A stretch of DNA of 37,979 bases. Origin: a virus (Duplodnaviria > Heunggongvirae > Uroviricota > Caudoviricetes). Below are positions 20,941 to 30,707 of this stretch, in pieces. The stretch lies in IMG/VR virus record IMGVR_UViG_2850784384_000004. One strand, given 5' to 3'. The translations under genes and the position numbers were made by a program. Within the stretch, counting starts at the first letter, position 1; each line of letters starts with the position of its first letter. The notes under the pieces were generated by a model that was not told where the DNA came from, did no database searches, and saw nothing but the letters and a program-made list of their open reading frames with translations.

Positions 20941-21794
20941 TGGCATTATTACTGGAGCCACTGCAGTTCACCTTTATGAGTCACGCACTGCTGATTTCAC
21001 TGGTAGTTTCCATACCCTGTGCGCTGCTGTCGGTCTTTCTGGTCCTGAAAGGTTGGGCACTGATGGGTGACGCGATGAGTCATGCGGTTTTTCCTGGCAT
21101 CGTGCTTACCTGGATTCTGGGGTTACCTCTGGCTACAGGGGCATTCGTCGCCGGAGTATTCTGCGCGGTGGCGACGGGATACCTGAAAGACAACAGCCGA
21201 ATCAAGCAAGATACAGTTATGGGGATTGTTTTTTCTGGCATGTTTGCCGCAGGTCTGATCTTGTATATTGCAATTAAACCAGACGTACATCTTGACCATA
21301 TTCTTTTCGGCGACATGCTCGGGATAACCATCGGCGATATAATCCAGACGGTGATTATTGCCGGGCTGGTTACACTTGTTATTAGCGTAAAATGGCGGGA
21401 TTTTTTGCTGTTCAGCTTTGATTATCAACAGGCGCAGGTAAGCGGTTTGCATACGAGATGGCTGCATTATGGGCTGCTGTGCATGGTTTCCCTGACCATT
21501 GTGGCGACGCTGAAAGCAGTAGGTATCATTCTCTCTATTTCTCTGCTCATTGCGCCTGGCGCCATTGCAGTACTCCTGACACAACGCTTTCATATTGCGC
21601 TCCTACTGGCGACTGGCATATCGGTAATAGTGTCAATGACTGGTGTCTGGCTGTCCTTTTTTATCGACAGCGCACCAGCTCCGACGATTGTCGTCTTATT
21701 CGCGGTCGTGTTCATCATGACGTTTACCGTTACCAGCATCAACGCACGCACAAAGGGAAACGCCCATACACAGGATCTGTTATCACCCAATTAG
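20937..21794 (+). CDS. sitD: Mn/Fe ABC transporter permease SitD
   Basis: 285-aa polytopic membrane protein, paralogous to SitC. Confidence 0.9.
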   Translation: MMALLLEPLQFTFMSHALLISLVVSIPCALLSVFLVLKGWALMGDAMSHAVFPGIVLTWILGLPLATGAFVAGVFCAVATGYLKDNSRIKQDTVMGIVFSGMFAAGLILYIAIKPDVHLDHILFGDMLGITIGDIIQTVIIAGLVTLVISVKWRDFLLFSFDYQQAQVSGLHTRWLHYGLLCMVSLTIVATLKAVGIILSISLLIAPGAIAVLLTQRFHIALLLATGISVIVSMTGVWLSFFIDSAPAPTIVVLFAVVFIMTFTVTSINARTKGNAHTQDLLSPN

Positions 21795-21994: not shown

Positions 21995-22618
21995 TTATTC
22001 CACGATAAAATTCCTAACCGAATTCAAATCCTTCAGACTATTCAGCTCTTCCTTCAGCTCCCGCTGACGGCGATAAATCTCATCGTTGCGATCGACCTGC
22101 GCCTGCACCATTGCTGCCGCCAGTTCTTCCAGTTCCGGCATCGACAGTTTCACCTGCTGATTATCGGCATCGCTCCACGCCATATGTGTTTGTGCTGTGA
22201 CAGATTTTGCCAGCATGACTACCGGGGACAGGCGGCCCAGTGAGTCGGGACCAGCATTCCAGATACGACCGTTCCATTCAAACGTGAACAGCTTCGCCTC
22301 CTGTTCTGCGCGCCATGCTTCAATTTCCTGACGTCTGGCCTCTCTGGCCGCTTCCAGCATTTCTGGTGTCACAGTGAATGGGGCTATCTCACCCCATTTG
22401 CCGCTTTGCAGTTCCTGCCAGATTTGCTGACCCGTCGGAGCGACATCATCAGCGGTGGCTGTGTAGGGGACTGCCTGGTCCCTGTCGTCAAAAAAAACGT
22501 CACAGTCTACTGCGCCACTTTCGGTATAACGGGGATTAATGATTTTTTTAATTTCCACGGTGCATTCCTCACGATGTGCGAATAAAAAGCCCGGGCATTG
22601 CGCCAGAGACATGAGCAT
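21995..22618 (-). CDS. phage tail fibre assembly protein (Tfa-like), intact copy
   Basis: 207-aa ORF; ~675 bp near-identical to 4905..5578. Confidence 0.65.
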   Translation of the reverse strand: MLMSLAQCPGFLFAHREECTVEIKKIINPRYTESGAVDCDVFFDDRDQAVPYTATADDVAPTGQQIWQELQSGKWGEIAPFTVTPEMLEAAREARRQEIEAWRAEQEAKLFTFEWNGRIWNAGPDSLGRLSPVVMLAKSVTAQTHMAWSDADNQQVKLSMPELEELAAAMVQAQVDRNDEIYRRQRELKEELNSLKDLNSVRNFIVE

Positions 22619-23758
22619 CCGGCACCCCGGACAGGGCGCAATATGACCCCGGTAATGAATGCTCTGAACATCCCGTAATGAAAAATTGTGGGGATGCTAT
22701 ATACGTTCCGGTGGGAGTACTGGGCACTGAAATCCCCACCGGTCCCAGTCGTGAGCCTCTGTATGACTGCCCCCTGACAAGTCTGATGACTTTATCACCG
22801 TCAGCTTCTCCCTGGTACGCAGCAATAATCAGCCCGCCAATGTCAGGGTCTCCCCATCTGTTGCGGACAGAGCTCGCCACGATTCTGTAAATAATATCTT
22901 CTGTGGTTATATTTATTTTCACCCAGTCAGTCAGTCTGGATATGGGCCAGTAGCGGTAGCGGGTGTGATAAATGGGGCCGTTAATGCCGTAAAAAGTAAG
23001 GGATTTGGCTCTGTACCGCGGTTCTGTTGTCTCAGGGCGTGCATCAGTCCACCGGATGCTGAGCACCCCTTCAAACCGTGTGTCGGGTATGATGATGCCG
23101 TAGGGGCCAGCAACGGAATATTCACCTGGCAGCGCATTCCTTACCCAGGCCAGGAAATCACTCTTAGTGTCAAAACGGATAACATCTTCAGGCAGAAAAG
23201 CACACCCAAAGCCGAATGCGCCGGGTATCGCCAGACGGCCTTTTGTCCGGTCGTAAATGTCGCTCTGTGCTTCCATCGTGGCCGCACTTTTCAGCCCCAG
23301 ATTATCCCGGGACTTCTGTTGTGCCTTTTCGCCTGCTGCTGCGATTTCAGACAGATGGTTAGCCGTTTTCAGAGTGCCGGTCAGCGCAGCATCAATGTCA
23401 TTTTTGGCCTGCTCTGCTGCGCCTGCGCCACCATTTCCTCAAAGCGTTTGACGACATCTGGTTTCAGGTCGCCCTCATCAGGAGCAATCAGAAAGTCATT
23501 CAGCGTACCGGGCTTTGAGTCCTCATATACAGCAATGTCGCCAACGTTGTACTCGTTGTGCCAGTCCTGTTTCAGATACACACCATATTTTCCAGTCCGC
23601 GCATGGAAACAGTATTCACCATCGTTTCCTGTCATCACATCAGCAACAGTGTGCATCACCACTTCCGGGGTGTTTACCCGGGATTTCAGAATAATATGGT
23701 ATCCGGACATGGAGATACCTGCGCCATCAGTCAGCGCACCTGATATCACTACAGACAT
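22569..23758 (-). pseudogene. phage side tail fibre protein, frameshifted
   Basis: N-terminal domain with VYEDSKPGTLNDFL motif (23381..23758); remainder in another frame (22569..23276); frame break near 23430. Confidence 0.65.
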
Positions 23759-23781
23759 AGTTTTTCTCGCGATAAATTAAA

Positions 23782-24269
23782 TCAGGAAGAAATTTCCGGA
23801 GAAGCGGGCCATTCAATGGCGTTGTATGAGGTTTTATCAGTGATGACACTGAAATCCATCGCCTGCAGCGATTTCGCGTAAATGCGGTACGCTTTCAGTT
23901 TTTCCCGGTCTTCGTCGCTGATTAGCCCCAGCAACAGGTCTTCTTCCCATTCCCCTGTCCGGGCACTGACCTGAGCCAGAAGGGCATCACGCTCATCTTC
24001 CGCTTTGAGTCTGTAGTCAAAGACAAATTCATCATTGCGGTAAAACCAGTAACCCGGCGCGGTAATGCGGCGGTTGGCGGTAATATCAGGAACTTCAATA
24101 ACACTGGCGTTACGGGGTTCAATGCCTGTCACATCCTTACCGACCCACACCACGCGACCGTCTCCGGTGTAAGTTATTTTAATTGTGTCCTGGCGAAATT
24201 CTTCAGCTCTTCATACCAGTTTTTTCCGTCTTCTGAAAAAAGCCAGGTGACCGAATATCGTTTTGTCAT
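23782..24269 (-). pseudogene. tail fibre assembly protein (second Tfa type), 1-bp deletion frameshift
   Basis: N-terminus [25 protein letters not shown] then frame break; C-terminus ...AIEWPASPEISS typical of Tfa. Confidence 0.6.
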
Positions 24270-24349
24270 CTGATATTGTTCTGCTGTTTTCGGATTACCC
24301 GTAGTAATATTTTTTAAATGCAACATTGTTAAATACTCGCTACGTTATA

Positions 24350-24702
24350 CTAGGTGCCATTAATCAGTTTTTGCAGTGGTCGGTAATACACACCGTCAAC
24401 GTTATCCGCTGAGTTACGGCCGGTATCCGATATCGCCATCCCTGACAGCCCGTGTCCCGAAGGTGCGCAAAATCTCCACGAAACGGTGTTACTGCCGGGG
24501 CTGTAATACATTTCATGGCCATACCGTACATCCTGTACCCCCTCTGTTCGATATTTATAGCGGGCATCGAAGTTTCCGTAATTTAACGGAATTACCTGTC
24601 CGTTAACAGTGAACACTATGCTGTTATCCGGGTTTCTCTGGCTGAAAAAATGCCAGCCTGAATCATCGCCAAGCTCTGCAACAACAGGCCTGGATGGATT
24701 AC
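24350..24702 (-). pseudogene. C-terminal fragment of a tail fibre/receptor-binding protein truncated by IS600
   Basis: ORF 24350..24718 begins inside IS600 end; native part has no start codon. Confidence 0.45.
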
Positions 24703-24745
24703 TGAGGTGTACTGGCAATAGCGGACACTACCATTTGTTCTTTTT

Positions 24746-25564
24746 TTAAGCAGCCATCTGATGATATTTTTCCCTGAAGGCTGCCGGGGAGATATTCCCC
24801 AGACGAGAGTGACGACGCTGACGATTGTAGAAAATCTCAATGTATTCCCGTATTACTGAGATGGCTTCATCCCGGTTATTAAAACGATAGTGGCTCAGGC
24901 TCTCATTTTTCAGCGTTCCCCAGAAGCTTTCCATCGGAGCGTTGTCGTAACAGTTACCTTTACGCGACATTGATGTTTTCAGACCAGACTGCTCCTGTAT
25001 GACCCGGTAATCGTATGCGCAGTACTGTGAACCTCGATCAGAGTGGTGGATTAGCCCGGCAGGTGGGCGCTGGCTCCTGAGCGCCATAAACAGGGCTTTA
25101 CCTGTCAGCTCTTTTGTCATGCGCTCTCCCATGGCGTAGCCGACAATTTCACACGTATAAACATCTTTGATGCCAGCGAGGTACAACCATCCCTCCTGTG
25201 TGGCAACATACGTCAGGTCCGCCACCCAGACCTGATTTGGTGCTGTAGGAGCGAACGTCTGGTTCAGCAGATTTGGCGCAACTGGCAGATTGTGGTTCGG
25301 GTTCGTAGTCGCTCTGAACTTGCGTTTCTGCTTACAGCGTAGCCTCAGCTCCTTACGAAGACGTGCCAGTCGGTCACGACCAACGATGATGCCATTCTCT
25401 GCCAGCTCCGTCTGGAGCCGCCGGGTTCCATATGTTTCGCGAGTGCGGATATGTGCCACCTTAATCTCCAGTTTTAGCCGCTCATCACTTTGTTTTCTGT
25501 CTGAGGGTTCATGCTGTACCCAGTTGTAATAACCGCTCCTGGATACACCAAATACCTGACACAT
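24746..25564 (-). CDS. IS600 transposase OrfB
   Basis: Identical to copy 1. Confidence 0.9.
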   Translation of the reverse strand: MCQVFGVSRSGYYNWVQHEPSDRKQSDERLKLEIKVAHIRTRETYGTRRLQTELAENGIIVGRDRLARLRKELRLRCKQKRKFRATTNPNHNLPVAPNLLNQTFAPTAPNQVWVADLTYVATQEGWLYLAGIKDVYTCEIVGYAMGERMTKELTGKALFMALRSQRPPAGLIHHSDRGSQYCAYDYRVIQEQSGLKTSMSRKGNCYDNAPMESFWGTLKNESLSHYRFNNRDEAISVIREYIEIFYNRQRRHSRLGNISPAAFREKYHQMAA

Positions 25565-25599
25565 CGCTTCAATGGGAAATTGTTGTCGCCATTGTTCGA

Positions 25600-25902
25600 T
25601 TAACGCGTATTTTTCAGCGACTCCTGTGCAAAATACGCTGTTGCTTTTTTTAATATATCTCGCTCAAGGCGAGCTTCATTTAACGCCTTACGCAGTTGCA
25701 GAATTTCAGATTCCAGTTCAGCCACCGTGCGGGAACCAGGAGTACCGAGCCCTTTTCTGGCGGCGGTAACCCATTGTCCTAAAGTGCCTTCAGGAAGAGA
25801 TAATCGGGAAGCGCCTTCACTGATCGAAAGTTGATTTTCAAGAACCGTTCTGACAGCTTCGGCTTTGAACTCTTTAGAGTAACGTTGGGTTTTTCTGCTC
25901 AT
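25600..25902 (-). CDS. IS600 OrfA
   Basis: Identical to copy 1. Confidence 0.9.
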   Translation of the reverse strand: MSRKTQRYSKEFKAEAVRTVLENQLSISEGASRLSLPEGTLGQWVTAARKGLGTPGSRTVAELESEILQLRKALNEARLERDILKKATAYFAQESLKNTR

Positions 25903-26180
25903 TATTAGCTCCTTCTGATGCCATTCTATTTCAGGAAGGAGTGTCCGTTAAACTCAGGCTACCTCACTGGTTATGGGTGATCGGGGAGAGAGTTTCAACA
26001 GAGATTTGAGTGGTCATAACGATAACTCCGTACATTTGGAAATTATCGCCACCGACGACGCCAATCGAACTGGTGGCGAACTGTGCAGGGTTGGCGTAAC
26101 CGGGTACGGAAACCGGCGAGCCTTTCGGCTCCCCCACACAGCCCGCCATAAATCGCGAATGTGACTGTGCAAACGATATG

Positions 26181-26201
26181 AAAAAAGACGCGGGCGCGTC
26201 T
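26181..26201 (-). terminator. intrinsic terminator downstream of late promoter (tR-prime-like)
   Basis: Minus strand: AGACGC-GCCC-GCGTCT followed by UUUUUU. Confidence 0.55.
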
Positions 26202-26263
26202 CATATCGCTCCGTAAACATCCGGGACGCCAATCCCGACGCCAGATTTTGCTGGCGCGTGAGG

Positions 26264-26293
26264 AATATAGCCCCGGATAACAGATTGAGTCAA
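26264..26293 (-). promoter_or_regulatory. late promoter pR-prime-like (TTGACT-18 bp-TATATT) overlapping Q stop codon
   Basis: Strong -35/-10 directly 3-prime of Q, as in lambdoid late regulatory regions. Confidence 0.5.
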
Positions 26294-26844
26294 CAAACGG
26301 TTTTTAGATCCCCGGAAGAGAATGCATCACGCATCGGTAGATAGAGCATATATTCAGCAAGATTTAGCCATACATCTACCCGACTGCAGCACGTCCGGAA
26401 ACACCACTCAGGGTGTGCGTCATTCAGCAATTCAGCCATTTTACGCTTAGTCATCCCCCGCCCTTCATACCGTTGCCGGAGGACACTAATCAATCCAGGA
26501 TGCTCTGCCAGCACCTCACTTATGACTCTATCAATACATAACGCCTCTGCATCAGTACAATGCGCCAGCCAGGTCTTTTGCTTGCCATTGATCATCTCTC
26601 GCAAAAACGCTTCCAGCTCAGGTTTCTCTATTCCCGCTTTTTTCATCCTGCGCAGGGCTTCATTGACGGCTGTTTTCGTCAATTTTTTGGATGCCAGCAA
26701 CTGGTTAAACATATTTCCCGTCTTACCGCCGCCAATATACGACCAGCGCCCCCACATGCGCAGTTTTCCCTGAATCCAGACACTTTCCAGCGTGGTGAGA
26801 CGAAGGTGTTCCCCGCTTTTGCCTGTATTTGTTGGGTAAATCAT
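26290..26844 (-). CDS. phage antitermination protein Q-like
   Basis: Position at end of nin-like region followed by promoter and terminator; family call from recalled motifs; start set at internal Met (MIYPTN...) abutting upstream gene. Confidence 0.55.
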   Translation of the reverse strand: MIYPTNTGKSGEHLRLTTLESVWIQGKLRMWGRWSYIGGGKTGNMFNQLLASKKLTKTAVNEALRRMKKAGIEKPELEAFLREMINGKQKTWLAHCTDAEALCIDRVISEVLAEHPGLISVLRQRYEGRGMTKRKMAELLNDAHPEWCFRTCCSRVDVWLNLAEYMLYLPMRDAFSSGDLKTVC

Positions 26845-27131
26845 AAATAACCTTCCTTTCTCCAGATTTCTTGTGTGCGAAAAACACCTTCTGCATGCAT
26901 CAGGCGTAATTCTTCTTTGGTGTAATCGCTGGTTTTTACCCGCCCGTCGATTAAATCGTGGCATGAGCTACAGGCAATCGCTGCCTGCATATCGTGTGGT
27001 TTTGTCGCTGTTCCGCACGTCCCCGCCAGCCTGTAATGCGCCAGCACAGAAGTTTCGGGATTGTGATTGCAGTAGCCAGGAATTCTGACGGTGCACATCT
27101 GCCCCCGCGCCGCTTTACGTAAATCCACCAT
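26841..27131 (-). CDS. YbcO-like Cys-rich putative nuclease (DUF1364-like)
   Basis: 96 aa; MVDLRKAARGQMCTVRIPGYCNHNPETSVLAH...CSSCHDLIDG pattern as I recall for YbcO. Confidence 0.5.
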   Translation of the reverse strand: MVDLRKAARGQMCTVRIPGYCNHNPETSVLAHYRLAGTCGTATKPHDMQAAIACSSCHDLIDGRVKTSDYTKEELRLMHAEGVFRTQEIWRKEGYL

Positions 27132-27730
27132 TACGCAAACTCCAGTAACTGCGCGGCCACATTTTCGACTTCCTCCGGAGAGGAAAATTTACGGAACAGG
27201 ATCCAGTTCCACAGCACATTCAGTACAGATTTATAAACCTGCTGAAACTCGGTTTCGTCCATGTTCGCAAATGCGATAGATTTTGCCCTGCGCCCACGAC
27301 TACCATCAGGATAAATATGCTCGGTGTAAAATCCGGCCTGAATGGTTACCCACTCGCGGAAAGCGTCAAACGACTTTAGCAATGCCGTATCCCGGGTTCT
27401 GCATGTCGCAACTGTATTAAGGTATTGCTCTGCGGCATCACTCAGGGCTGGAGTGTGTTCCCGACCTACTGATTCGCACAGGTAATCAACGAAGCCTGAT
27501 ACCAGTTTTCGTTCGCGAGGCGTGATCGCCCCACCGACCGGAGTCCAGTAATCAAATCCCAGTTGCAGGAGTTTGAAAAAACGCTTGTGGAATGCGTAGT
27601 TACGCACACGCTTAAAGTCTGCGTGTATCCACTCACCTATTTTGATTTGATGCAAAAAATCGCAACTCTCCGGCGTCGCCGGGAGAAGTAATCCGGAAGA
27701 GGTTTGTTTGACCAGTTGTATATGCGCCAT
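27131..27730 (-). CDS. lambdoid nin-region protein (DUF1367-like; assignment tentative)
   Basis: 199-aa ORF contiguous with ybcO-like and Q-like genes. Confidence 0.4.
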   Translation of the reverse strand: MAHIQLVKQTSSGLLLPATPESCDFLHQIKIGEWIHADFKRVRNYAFHKRFFKLLQLGFDYWTPVGGAITPRERKLVSGFVDYLCESVGREHTPALSDAAEQYLNTVATCRTRDTALLKSFDAFREWVTIQAGFYTEHIYPDGSRGRRAKSIAFANMDETEFQQVYKSVLNVLWNWILFRKFSSPEEVENVAAQLLEFA

Positions 27731-27863
27731 CGTAGTTCTCCGCTGGCGCAGTAGAATGGGTGTTCAGCCCGTTATGTAGTATACCAGAATTAATGCCAAT
27801 ACTAACAGGGTAATGCTGCCAACTTACTGATTTAGTGTATGATGGTGATTTTAAGGTGCTTGC

Positions 27864-28139
27864 GTGGCTTCCATTTCCATCAGATGTCCTTCCTGCTCCG
27901 CTACTGAAGGCGTGGTGCGTAACGGCAAAAGCACTGCCGGACATCAGCGCTATCTCTGCTCTCATTGCCGTAAAACATGGCAACTACAGTTCACTTACAC
28001 CGCCTCTCAGCCCGGTACGCACCAGAAAATCATTGATATGGCCATGAATGGCGTCGGATGTCGCGCCAGTGCACGCATTATGGGCGTTGGCCTCAACACG
28101 GTTTTACGTCACTTAAAAAACTCAGGCCGCAGTCGGTAA
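27864..28139 (+). CDS. insA: IS1 InsA
   Basis: 91 aa. Confidence 0.9.
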
Positions 28140-28561
28140 CCTCGCGCATACAACCGGGCAGTGATGTGATTGTCTGCGCTGAAATGGACGAACATTGGGG
28201 CTACGTCGGTGCTAAATCACGTCAGCGCTGGCTGTTTTACGCGTATGACAGGATACGGAGGACGGTTGTGGCGCACGTCTTCGGTGAACGCACTCTGGCC
28301 ACACTGGAGCGTCTTCTGAGCCTGCTGTCGGCCTTTGAGGTCGTGGTATGGATGACGGATGGCTGGCCGCTGTATGAATCACGCCTGAAGGGAAAGCTGC
28401 ACGTTATCAGCAAGCGTTACACTCAGCGCATTGAGCGACATAATCTGAATCTGAGACAACATCTGGCAAGGCTGGTACGGAAGTCACTGTCGTTCTCAAA
28501 ATCGGTGGAGCTGCATGACAAGGTCATCGGGCATTATCTGAACATAAAACACTATCAGTAA
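28058..28561 (+). CDS. insB: IS1 InsB
   Basis: 167 aa. Confidence 0.9.
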
Positions 28562-28578
28562 GTTGGAGTCATTACCTA

Positions 28579-28830
28579 CTAACAGGATGCTCTGACTCGC
28601 AATTCATCCAGCAGTTTATCATTTCCCATAATGTCACTTACCCTCATCGGTAAAAAAATTGCCTTTCGACCATTACGATACATTATTGATTTTGGGATTT
28701 CAGGGAAGTAATCCATTTCGACTATAACTGACAGGTCATCACGACGTATGACTGCGTATTTGCTACTAAATAGTTTCTTTATTTTTTCCACGATGCCCCC
28801 AGGTTTATAAGTACAAACGGTTATATCCAC
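28579..28830 (-). CDS. hypothetical prophage protein (83 aa); stop codon lies inside the IS1 target duplication
   Basis: ORF from track; AT-rich; positioned between hok and nin genes. Confidence 0.4.
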   Translation of the reverse strand: MDITVCTYKPGGIVEKIKKLFSSKYAVIRRDDLSVIVEMDYFPEIPKSIMYRNGRKAIFLPMRVSDIMGNDKLLDELRVRASC

Positions 28831-28976
28831 ATAGAGACAAAAATATTAATCTGATAAATATTTATTTCACGCCGTATATTTGATTGTTTAATGTGCAAGT
28901 ACAATGACTTTTATTTTTTGTTGTGTATATAATCAAATATATGGTTATTTTTCACCCTGCGTATTCAGCACGCAAC

Positions 28977-29000
28977 AAAAAACCCGCCGAAGCGGGTTTA
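28977..29000 (-). terminator. intrinsic terminator downstream of hok
   Basis: Minus strand: AAACCCGC-UUCG-GCGGGUUU followed by UUUUUUG. Confidence 0.6.
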
Positions 29001-29066
29001 GTGCGGGTGCGTTGAGGATGCCTGACACATGAGAGGTGGCGAGGGATTTCTCCCCCGCCTGGTCTC

Positions 29067-29222
29067 TTACTCCTCAGGTTCGTAAGCTGTGAAGACAGCG
29101 ACCTCCGTCTGGCCGGTTCGGATTCGTACCTCGCAGAGGTCTTTCCTCGTTACCAGTGCCGTCACTATGACGGTTAAACAGATGACGATCAGGGCGATTA
29201 ACATCGCCTTTTGCTGCTTCAT
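29067..29222 (-). CDS. hok: Hok/Gef-family type I toxin (HokD-like small membrane peptide)
   Basis: MKQQKAMLIALIVICLTVIVTALVTRKDLCEVRIRTGQTEVAVFTAYEPEE, 51 aa; in-frame upstream extension to 29279 may correspond to the mok-like leader. Confidence 0.85.
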   Translation of the reverse strand: MKQQKAMLIALIVICLTVIVTALVTRKDLCEVRIRTGQTEVAVFTAYEPEE

Positions 29223-29560
29223 AGCCTGCTTCTCCTTGCCTTTCGGCACGTAAGAGGCTAACCTACATTTGTGAGACATAGATTGGGCCTCAGATTAATG
29301 TTAAGCGTCTTGCAGGACGCGTAATGTTAACTGGGGCTTTTCTCTGTCTGCCTTACAGTGGCATGCCCGAGGCAGACAGCCTCAAGCACCCGCAGCAATC
29401 TTACCGATACCGATAAGAAAACGCTATTTTTTATTGCCAGCACCTTCTATCCAGGCTAATTTATCTGCGTCAGAACGGCGCAATGCGCTCGCCTGAGATA
29501 CGTTTACTTGCCATGGTAACAACAGGTAACGGCAATTGCTGTTTCTGTTTTGTTTCCTTC

Positions 29561-29591
29561 AAAAACCCCGGACCATCAATCCGGGGTTTTT
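29561..29591. terminator. bidirectional intrinsic terminator hairpin
   Basis: AAAAACCCCGG-ACCATCAAT-CCGGGGTTTTT; A/T runs on both sides. Confidence 0.6.
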
Positions 29592-29676
29592 GTTTGTTAA
29601 CCCCAACGGCAAATCGAATACACCACCAGCGCCACCGCCATCGCAATTCCTACCGTGGTGAATGCCTCAGGCCAGG

Positions 29677-30042
29677 TCATTGATTCACCTCCTGCGGTGG
29701 TTCCGGTAGCGGCATCCAGTGAGTTGAGCTCTCTACTTCAACGCCGTCTTTGTCCACAAAAGCCATCTTATTCCCGCCACGAGTGGGGCAAAAAACCTTA
29801 TCCCAGGAACCGGGGAATACATTCCCGAGATCATCGAGAAGAATCACATCGCAATATTCAGCAGGAACTGCATCACTACAGCTTATCCAGCCAGCCAGAG
29901 TTACCGGAGAGTTGCCAGCCTTACGCATGGCCATTTCCACGATTTCAACCATATCTCCTGGTGGAATTTTACAAAGTTGCCCAATACATTTCTGCTGCCT
30001 GGCATATTCGAGAATGTGCTCCAGTTTGGTTCGATTAATCAT
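29677..30042 (-). CDS. DUF551-like prophage protein
   Basis: C-terminal THWMPLPEPP motif typical of DUF551 family. Confidence 0.5.
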   Translation of the reverse strand: MINRTKLEHILEYARQQKCIGQLCKIPPGDMVEIVEMAMRKAGNSPVTLAGWISCSDAVPAEYCDVILLDDLGNVFPGSWDKVFCPTRGGNKMAFVDKDGVEVESSTHWMPLPEPPQEVNQ

Positions 30043-30707
30043 TATTTATCTCCCTTAAGCATGGCAGCGCGGCAGGCGTTCCAGCCATCAACATAATCAA
30101 ACGTATTACTATCGTTTGGCCCGATTTCATCCGGCACTATCGGCTCTGGTTGGATAGTGACGTTGGCAAAGGCAGCACGCAAACCGGTTTTAATTTCTTC
30201 GATTTCATCAGAGCCAAGCGATGAATCTGACAGTGCGTGATGGAATGCGTAAGCCATGTCGTCGTTTACTGCAACCGGCACTGCCGGCGCTGCGTAAAGC
30301 GGTGTTATATCTGCCCGAAAATCACATGCTTTATGCAGTCGTACCCAACGCTCAACTTCCGCTTTGTAAAAATATATAGCAGTGAACGTATTAGATTCCT
30401 GGTCAACTTGAGTAAACGTCACCTTCCACGCTACAGCTACGGCTTTCCATCCATCAGGTTGTCGCATTCGCGGGGCAGCATAAAGCTCATGCATTCCATC
30501 AGGCAGCGAGTGACCCACATACTCACCGAACCCGTCAATACACATGCCCCCATCTTCAACAATGCATTCCGCTACAGGCTCTGCTTCCAGTGATGCCAGA
30601 GCGATAAGCGCCAGTTCACGAATTTCACCGCCGTCTATATCGTCAATATCATCGCGGCCAGAAATGTTAGCCAGCCATTGCAGTCGCTCTTTGGTAATAG
30701 TAGTCAT
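30042..30707 (-). CDS. hypothetical acidic prophage protein (221 aa)
   Basis: ORF coupled to neighbours by overlapping stop/start; internal LYAAP duplication. Confidence 0.45.
   Translation of the reverse strand: MTTITKERLQWLANISGRDDIDDIDGGEIRELALIALASLEAEPVAECIVEDGGMCIDGFGEYVGHSLPDGMHELYAAPRMRQPDGWKAVAVAWKVTFTQVDQESNTFTAIYFYKAEVERWVRLHKACDFRADITPLYAAPAVPVAVNDDMAYAFHHALSDSSLGSDEIEEIKTGLRAAFANVTIQPEPIVPDEIGPNDSNTFDYVDGWNACRAAMLKGDK

Follow-up and report, generated by a model that had tools for sequence, protein, structure and literature searches.

The mechanistic reference for hok/sok systems is the parB locus of plasmid R1, which works in a plasmid context and has proven post-segregational killing; it is represented here by the R1-type locus of plasmid pMTY1886 (L004). 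Two further systems are closer in sequence to the locus studied here. The first is hokW-sokW, with its mokW gene, found in the Stx2 phages 933W and Sakai prophage 5 (Sp5), a working toxin-antitoxin system of type I, which aids lysis and doubles phage release on induction (PMC8621323). The second is hokD of E. coli K-12 (relF, in the relBEF region of the Qin prophage), which has been described as rearranged and without canonical components (PMC12214031). We compared these systems with a hok locus in the viral record IMGVR_UViG_2850784384_000004, a stretch of 37,979 nucleotides (nt) that we call the window. The locus lies on the minus strand at 28976-29403, spans about 425 bp, and very probably constitutes a complete RNA-controlled type I toxin-antitoxin module of the hokD/hokW subtype, working by the canonical hok/sok mechanism. 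It is of a known kind and belongs to a sequence family in which such modules have already been described.

Comparison with described hok loci

The closest tested relative of the locus is hokW-sokW, with 92.8% DNA identity over 400 nt. Both have the mok/hok/sok layout, the same -35 box, spacer and -10 box of the Sok promoter, an extended Sok terminator hairpin and a lambdoid prophage as their setting, and in 933W, as in the window, the same small open reading frame (ORF) of 27 amino acids (aa) is present just upstream. They differ in four C-terminal residues of Hok (TAYEPEE in the window vs VDYESEK in HokW) and in residues 2-4 of Mok. Besides, hokW is only 45 nt from the small ORF, without the terminator and spacer that intervene in the window, and its host phage is inducible, whereas the prophage of the window is degraded.

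The R1-type locus resembles the window in the order of its elements, in the 5' motif (GGCGCUUGAGGCUUUCUGCCUC vs GGGUGCUUGAGGCUGUCUGCCUC), in having mok in frame with hok, in a Sok promoter placed over the hok Shine-Dalgarno (SD) sequence, and in the closure of the mRNA by pairing of its 5' translational activator element (tac) with its 3' fold-back inhibitory element (fbi). The Hok proteins of R1 and the window are only distantly similar; R1 Hok shares 44% identity with HokW (PMC8621323), which is four residues away from the Hok of the window. In the plasmid locus, the apical part of the 5' stem is longer and the Sok hairpin shorter.

The comparison with K-12 hokD is of a different kind. The Hok proteins are 100% identical, and the hok SD, the coding region, the 3' hairpin, fbi and the terminator are common to both, but the two sequences become similar only from about 15 nt ahead of the hok AUG onward. 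Upstream of this point, K-12 has the 3' end of relE in place of tac, ucb (the anti-SD box), the start of mok and the Sok gene, all of which the window keeps. K-12 also has relBE and rem, which the window lacks: a tblastn search of the whole 38-kb window with the K-12 RelB, RelE and Rem proteins gave no match (best E 0.07-0.5), in agreement with the original prediction, which had described a hok-type locus without relB or relE. The relBEF-type arrangement, with relB and relE directly upstream of a hok that has no leader and Sok of its own, is not present here.

It was also proposed that the locus stands alone. This was borne out, although the absence of relBE is the common state and no peculiarity of this copy. 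A 250-nt query containing the stand-alone leader and the hok start was found, with at least 80% of its length covered, in 4022 of 5426 complete E. coli genomes, while the K-12 relE-hokD junction was present in 1165 of the 5426. Hok without relBE is the usual arrangement, and the K-12 relBE-hokD fusion is a derived one found in a minority of genomes. RefSeq labels the matching E. coli loci as hokD, type I toxin. In Kluyvera sp. CHPC 1.2972 (L029) the 3' end of relE is likewise fused directly upstream of hok, so that the relBE-hok fusion is not confined to relatives of E. coli K-12.

Elements of the hok-mok-sok module

In this locus, all sequence elements of the module were shown to be present, intact and conserved. 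The elements are listed below in the coordinates of the window, with positions in the predicted mRNA where they apply.

28976-29391, minus strand: hok mRNA as predicted at full length (about 416 nt), starting with the G of GGGUGCUUGAGG and ending in the terminator U-tract
28980-28999, minus strand: intrinsic terminator of the hok mRNA (terminator scan)
29005-29017, minus strand: fbi, nt 375-387
29038-29059, minus strand: hairpin GGCGGGGGAGAAAUCCCUCGCC of the 3' untranslated region (UTR), nt 333-354, the expected stop for 3' exonucleolytic trimming
29067-29222, minus strand: hok toxin gene, 51 aa (Pfam HOK_GEF, identity to K-12 HokD)
29067-29279, minus strand: reading frame of mok, 70 aa, which shares the frame and the stop codon of hok (ORF list)
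29232-29237, minus strand: hok SD, AAGGAG
29236-29264, plus strand: Sok promoter, with -35 box TTGCCT (29236-29241), a 17-nt spacer and -10 box TAACCT (29259-29264)
29254-29258, minus strand: dcb, GCCUC
29254-29291, minus strand: Sok target hairpin of the processed mRNA, nt 101-138
29271-29341, plus strand: Sok antisense RNA, about 71 nt (coordinates transferred from the annotated sokW)
29277-29279, minus strand: mok AUG, nt 113-115
29287-29293, minus strand: SD region of mok, CUGAGGC, nt 99-105
29331-29340, minus strand: ucb, nt 52-61
29369-29383, minus strand: 5' hairpin GAGGCUGUCUGCCUC, nt 9-23, which corresponds to the metastable hairpin formed in nascent hok mRNA
29380-29391, minus strand: tac, nt 1-12
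29398-29403, minus strand: -10 box of the hok promoter, TAAGAT

The 51-aa protein matches the Pfam family HOK_GEF (PF01848) with 81.6 bits (E 3e-23) and, being identical to K-12 HokD, carries no inactivating substitution relative to it. The original prediction had recognised this HokD-like toxin and an in-frame, possibly mok-like extension ahead of it; the extension adds 19 codons, and its architecture is that of the annotated mokW of 933W, which ends at one stop codon with hokW, and of the R1-type mok. A GAGG is located 8 nt ahead of the mok AUG. By analogy with those systems, translation of hok would be coupled to that of mok. The codon for Tyr47 of Hok is part of a UACG motif (29081-29084, minus strand), and TACGAA is invariant at this place in all 35 aligned loci; UACG is the motif for A-to-I editing by TadA, and the K-12 hokD mRNA is reported to be edited at a low level, changing Tyr to Cys (PMC12214031).

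The leader is shorter than first thought. It had been estimated at about 340 bp, but similarity to other hok loci ends at about 29399, which limits the module to about 28976-29403 and the mRNA leader to the 169 nt between 29391 and 29223. The first base of the mRNA was set at the G at 29391, which is the first base aligned to the Rfam model RF01794 and stands 7 nt after the -10 box. A -10 box occurs at an equal distance from this G in 24 related loci (TAGAAT, TATAAT, TATATT).

A sok-like antisense gene had been supposed to lie in the leader, and one was found there. Its -35 box overlaps the hok SD on the opposite strand, and its promoter does not differ in a single base from that of sokW in 933W and Sp5 and resembles the R1-type promoter TTGCGC-17-TATCCT. 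A mutation in the -10 region of sokW abolished antitoxin activity (PMC8621323). The predicted Sok RNA overlaps the mok AUG. Folding of 29271-29345 gave a single-stranded 5' tail, a long terminator hairpin and a U-tract, with a free energy of -30.7 kcal/mol and a z-score of -5.93. Sok and SokW are identical at 64 of 71 positions; of the seven differences, six are within the first 16 nt, which form the target-recognition tail, so that cross-recognition between the two systems may be reduced.

A single S. flexneri genome has three hokD-type loci (L009, L011 and L015). Their leaders are almost the same except in the Sok 5' tails (29271-29290, plus strand, in the window), and hence in the first codons of mok, where many positions vary. 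This divergence suggests that the hokD-type copies of S. flexneri would not cross-regulate.

Folding of the hok mRNA and covariation across related loci

The 416-nt hok mRNA folds with a free energy of -176 kcal/mol and a z-score of -7.25 against shuffled sequences. In both the minimum free energy (MFE) and the centroid structures, nt 1-12 pair with nt 375-387, closing the tac-fbi helix with 12 of 12 pairs and one bulge. In this closed form, obtained with the full-length RNA, ucb pairs with the SD region of mok, which is thereby sequestered. Some folds of 3'-shortened RNAs give an open form instead, with a tac/ucb stem, pairing of the mok SD with dcb, and a hairpin of nt 101-138 that carries the start of mok and agrees with the consensus structure of RF01794. 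This Sok target hairpin, which also forms when the first 140 nt or the 362-nt shortened RNA are folded, holds mok codons 2-4 in its loop (CUCACAA) and the mok AUG in its stem. The closed and open forms are those described for the R1 hok mRNA (PMC9841398).

Two smaller structures complete the picture. The hairpin GAGGCUGUCUGCCUC appears when the first 25-40 nt are folded, and its counterpart in the R1-type locus is GAGGCUUUCUGCCUC. The hairpin of the 3' UTR, with a 9-bp stem and a GAAA loop, is present in both the MFE and the centroid structures and has a counterpart in all 35 aligned loci; by analogy with work on R1 (PMC9841398), it probably limits 3' processing.

The conservation of these structures was examined in related loci. 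A scan of one genome per species yielded 53 loci encoding relatives of the window Hok, of which 34 have a recognisable tac motif; these span Escherichia, Shigella, Kluyvera, Citrobacter, Pantoea and Photorhabdus. The tac-fbi helix, counted by script, is fully paired in 32 of the 34. Its position 4 is UA in 21 loci, CG in 11, UG in one and CA in one; position 11 is GC in 26, GU in seven and AU in one; and position 12 is GC in 18, AU in 15 and GU in one. Such compensatory changes support the fold-back structure.

Both folds were also evaluated on a MAFFT alignment of 35 mRNAs. The closed fold is 91% paired, compared with 36-44% when partners are slid, and 11 of its pairs change on both sides. 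The pair between ucb and the SD region at columns 77-119 is AU in 23 mRNAs and GC in 12, with none unpaired. For the open fold, pairing amounts to 77%. In its tac/ucb helix pairing reaches 99%, but the helix is invariant and consequently provides no covariation either way; the base helix of the Sok target hairpin is 97-100% paired. The sequence of the window fits at every tested pair. MAFFT placed the fbi of Photorhabdus-type loci, which has no bulge, one column out of register, and for this reason only pairs 1-6 of the tac-fbi helix were counted on the alignment, and all 12 by script. RNAduplex over-extended the helix on both long and shorter flanks, and explicit counting of tac/fbi pairs was used in its place.

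The original prediction turned on an antisense promoter and fold-back elements, and both are present and conserved. Several loci of the scan served as contrasts: the K-12 type (L008) and the Kluyvera locus (L029), both with relE sequence upstream; a hokC-type locus without fbi (L017); one with a degenerate tac (L007); and one with a frameshifted Hok (L049).

RF01794 and the CssrC RNA

The leader matches the Rfam family RF01794, named sok antitoxin (CssrC), at 29217-29391 on the minus strand. The match covers model positions 1-157 of 157 with 118.1 bits (E=1.7e-26; the gathering score is 59), a signal far beyond chance. Given the name and type of the family, this match might itself be taken for the antitoxin RNA. 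We consider that reading almost certainly wrong and rejected it on strand and coordinates. The match is on the hok-coding strand, begins at the tac sequence and finishes at the hok AUG; the reverse complement of this region, at 29271-29341 on the plus strand, is Sok, in agreement with the annotated sokW.

The origin of the family points in the same direction. CssrC, its source, is an RNA of about 340 nt detected by Peng et al. in S. flexneri 301 by Northern blotting and assigned to the strand of its flanking genes (PMC3071730); hok and sok are not mentioned in the main text of that paper (PMC3071730). The Northern probe, GTGCGTTGAGGATGCCTGACAC, matches exactly at 29007-29028 on the plus strand, within the 3' UTR of hok. 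A plus-strand probe detects a minus-strand RNA that contains fbi, that is, the hok mRNA. Taken together, the strand of the match, its start at tac, its end at the hok AUG and the position of the probe indicate that RF01794 models the leader of the hok mRNA, and an annotation transferred from an RF01794 hit would place the antitoxin on the wrong strand. The Northern result is also indirect evidence that a hokD-type mRNA is made in S. flexneri.

The locus of the window is likely the CssrC locus of strain 301. CssrB is found in the same relative order and on the same strand in both, although it lies 17.8 kb from CssrC in strain 301, compared with 26.6 kb in the window.

These results matter mainly for annotation, in which the locus should appear as a complete hok-mok-sok system of the hokD/hokW type and not as a bare toxin gene.

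Predicted mechanism and activity of this copy

Studies of hok/sok from plasmid R1 and of hokW-sokW are the basis on which we infer the dynamics of the system: how it would be transcribed, processed at the 3' end and cleaved by RNase III, how Sok would turn over, and that Hok would be toxic. A weak promoter would produce a stable hok mRNA of about 416 nt, in which the 5' tac pairs with the 3' fbi and ucb masks the ribosome-binding site of mok, and this RNA would be neither translated nor bound by Sok. Slow 3' trimming would strip fbi and halt at the GGCGGGGGAG...CUCGCC hairpin. The 5' region would then refold through tac-ucb and mok SD-dcb pairing, exposing mok for translation and forming the Sok target hairpin, with the translation of Hok coupled to that of mok. 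As long as Sok, short and unstable, is supplied by a stronger promoter on the opposite strand, it would pair with the mok start region, and RNase III would degrade the duplex. Once this supply ends, because the DNA is lost or transcription is shut off, translation of the processed mRNA would follow, and Hok would enter the inner membrane and collapse the membrane potential.

Several points weigh against an active module of this kind. The hexamer at the hok -35 position, TAGCGT, is poor and lies inside a rare spacer unlike the sequence of other loci, and a generic sigma-70 scan flagged neither the hok nor the Sok promoter, both of which were identified by homology. The MFE folds of the 3'-shortened RNA depend on the exact cut point. 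The CssrC probe also matches other hokD-type copies of S. flexneri genomes (L009, L015), and the Northern band is therefore not assignable to this copy, whose expression and toxicity are predictions. Moreover, hokA of E. coli C, hokB of K-12 and hokC of ECOR24 gave no post-segregational killing although their elements are intact, according to work cited in the bioRxiv preprint 10.1101/2025.08.07.668861.

The same points bear on the reading of the locus as a structurally complete yet inert passenger of a dead prophage, whose hok is barely transcribed or whose Sok is always in excess. The poor -35 region in a non-conserved spacer, the heavy decay of a prophage full of insertion sequence (IS) elements and the negative killing tests on chromosomal hok loci cited in that preprint would fit such a passenger, as would the description of the K-12 hok copies as inactivated (PMC12214031). 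However, no element is missing or interrupted here, unlike in the K-12 copies; the nearest IS1 lies about 400 nt beyond the terminator; the layout is kept in many genomes; and in S. flexneri 301 a hokD-type mRNA can be detected (PMC3071730). In addition, the overexpressed Hok homologues that have been studied, HokD included, are toxic (bioRxiv 10.1101/2025.08.07.668861), and the Hok of the window is unchanged from that toxin. On balance, we regard an inert passenger as rather unlikely and favour a complete module with the canonical mechanism.

Prophage context and possible roles

Judged by its sequence, the window is S. flexneri-type chromosome: over 1553 nt that include the IS1 junction, it shares 99.94% identity with the S. 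flexneri locus L011. The prophage is lambdoid and degraded, and the module occupies a place in its nin-like region, with replication genes on one side and a Q-like antiterminator gene on the other. Transcription of this early region runs toward lower coordinates, through DnaC/IstB-like, DUF977, HNH and DUF551 genes, hok/sok, DUF1367 and the Q-like DUF1133 gene, and the order DUF551-hok-small ORF-IS1-DUF1367-YbcO-DUF1133 recurs in many genomes. The main features around the module are the following.

26290-26964: Q-like DUF1133 gene
29404-29592: spacer of about 190 bp between the small ORF and the hok promoter, ending in a terminator
29560-29592: strong, effectively bidirectional terminator (terminator scan)
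29677-30042, minus strand: DUF551 gene, already named as a neighbour in the original prediction
32233-32976: DnaC/IstB-like gene

Terminators had been placed on both sides of the locus. Both exist, at 28999-28980 on the minus strand and at 29560-29592, but the upstream one belongs to the transcription unit of DUF551 and the small ORF and not to the module.

One possible role is the one described for hokW-sokW, in which induction would remove Sok, Hok would be made, and early membrane damage would speed lysis and phage release. The closest tested relative acts in this way (PMC8621323), with an identical Sok promoter and the 92.8% DNA identity given above, and a position in the lambdoid early region might permit read-through from an early promoter on induction. 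Nevertheless, hok is separated from the upstream operon by the strong terminator at 29560-29592. The sequence downstream of the Q-like gene contains C4 and isrK RNAs, an IS3-family element (24703-25988) and tail-fibre fragments, followed by a transporter resembling sitABCD and more IS elements. Of the ORFs scanned in the prophage segment (about 22000-37000), none was found to encode a holin, an endolysin or a head or tail protein. The prophage thus looks defective, and with no phage to release, a role in the timing of lysis is very unlikely here.

The module might also act in defence, by abortive infection: the shut-off of host transcription by a lytic phage would deplete Sok, and the cell would die before the phage matures. 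We consider this role improbable, since hok is not enriched beside defence systems and the effect on T4 required a high copy number (bioRxiv 10.1101/2025.08.07.668861).

Stabilisation, which was the role first suggested, is one possible role among several. The locus may stabilise the island around it or be kept as a selfish element; it may also act in phage exclusion or have no function at present. A more specific reading, which we put forward as speculative and think quite improbable, combines two parts: hok/sok would be an addiction anchor in S. flexneri, and the hokD-type copies would be kept independent by the divergent first 16 nt or so of Sok. If true, the anchor would penalise deletion of a decaying, IS-bounded remnant with fitness and virulence cargo (a sitABCD-like transporter, an IpaH-like effector), and this would explain why the module is perfect while the surrounding phage has collapsed. 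Whatever its role, the complete module that we favour could be a natural single-copy test of whether an intact chromosomal hok/sok can stabilise a degraded Shigella prophage island.

Spacer, small ORF and flanking IS1

The spacer at 29404-29592, which replaces the -35 region of other hok loci, is present in only about 30 of 5426 E. coli genomes. A hidden function was considered for it, but it has no Rfam match at threshold (the weak ones are driven by the terminator) and no promoter-like site, and it is rare; we left it as spacer plus terminator. A match to isrK over the 3' UTR of hok, with 30.6 bits against a gathering score of 50, was treated as a resemblance between hairpins and terminators.

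The 27-aa hydrophobic ORF, MTWPEAFTTVGIAMAVALVVYSICRWG, is at 29597-29680 on the minus strand, and its start overlaps the stop of DUF551 (ATGA). Its close copy just upstream of hokW in 933W stands behind an unrelated gene. The 933W gene L0139, examined as a DUF551 homologue that would indicate a shared context, showed no similarity. The segment with this ORF is present in about 1300 E. coli genomes and absent from most other hok loci. On the other side of the module, an 83-aa ORF at 28579-28830 was tried as the Rem protein of Qin and gave neither similarity nor a Pfam match.

An IS1 element at 27809-28576 was considered as an inactivating insertion, like the IS elements beside K-12 hokA, hokC and hokE, and was ruled out. 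The element, bordered by a clean 9-bp target duplication, TACTAACAG, sits where the next small ORF has its stop codon. The hok terminator is about 400 nt away, and the module is thus untouched. Apart from the insertion, the sequence on either side is collinear (98%) with that of an E. coli prophage free of IS elements.

Other elements of the window

Near one end of the window, the small RNA CssrB (2631-2813, minus strand, 151.6 bits) is immediately upstream of, and divergent from, the IpaH-like effector gene (2942-4657, plus strand), which encodes LRR_TTSS and NEL E3 ligase domains. The sitABCD-like metal transporter, of the ATP-binding cassette (ABC) type, comprises four genes at 18345-21794 on the plus strand (ZnuA-like, ABC ATPase and two ABC-3 permeases); it is found among prophage fragments, adjoining a truncated phage integrase gene (17219-17872).

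The pair of isrK and C4 antisense RNAs occurs twice, in opposite orientation, at 7234-7422 (plus strand) and 26069-26270 (minus strand). The minus-strand copy, which also has a match to the c4-a1b1 target, is located between the Q-like gene and an IS. The two pairs suggest that the window contains two immunity or late-control regions of prophage remnants.

The region is heavily IS-ridden. Two inverted copies of IS1, the one at 27809-28576 and another at 16465-17232, are about 771 nt long and 100% complementary, and flank about 10.6 kb that contain the Q-like gene, C4/isrK, the tail-fibre fragments and the sitABCD-like transporter. An IS3-family element of about 1.26 kb with an rve transposase is present in four copies, at 490-1753, 11688-12951, 24703-25988 and 36737-37979, the last of them inverted. 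Further IS segments are duplicated at 8021/33723 and 13196/34970, and an ALIL frameshift pseudoknot is found at 15148-15264.

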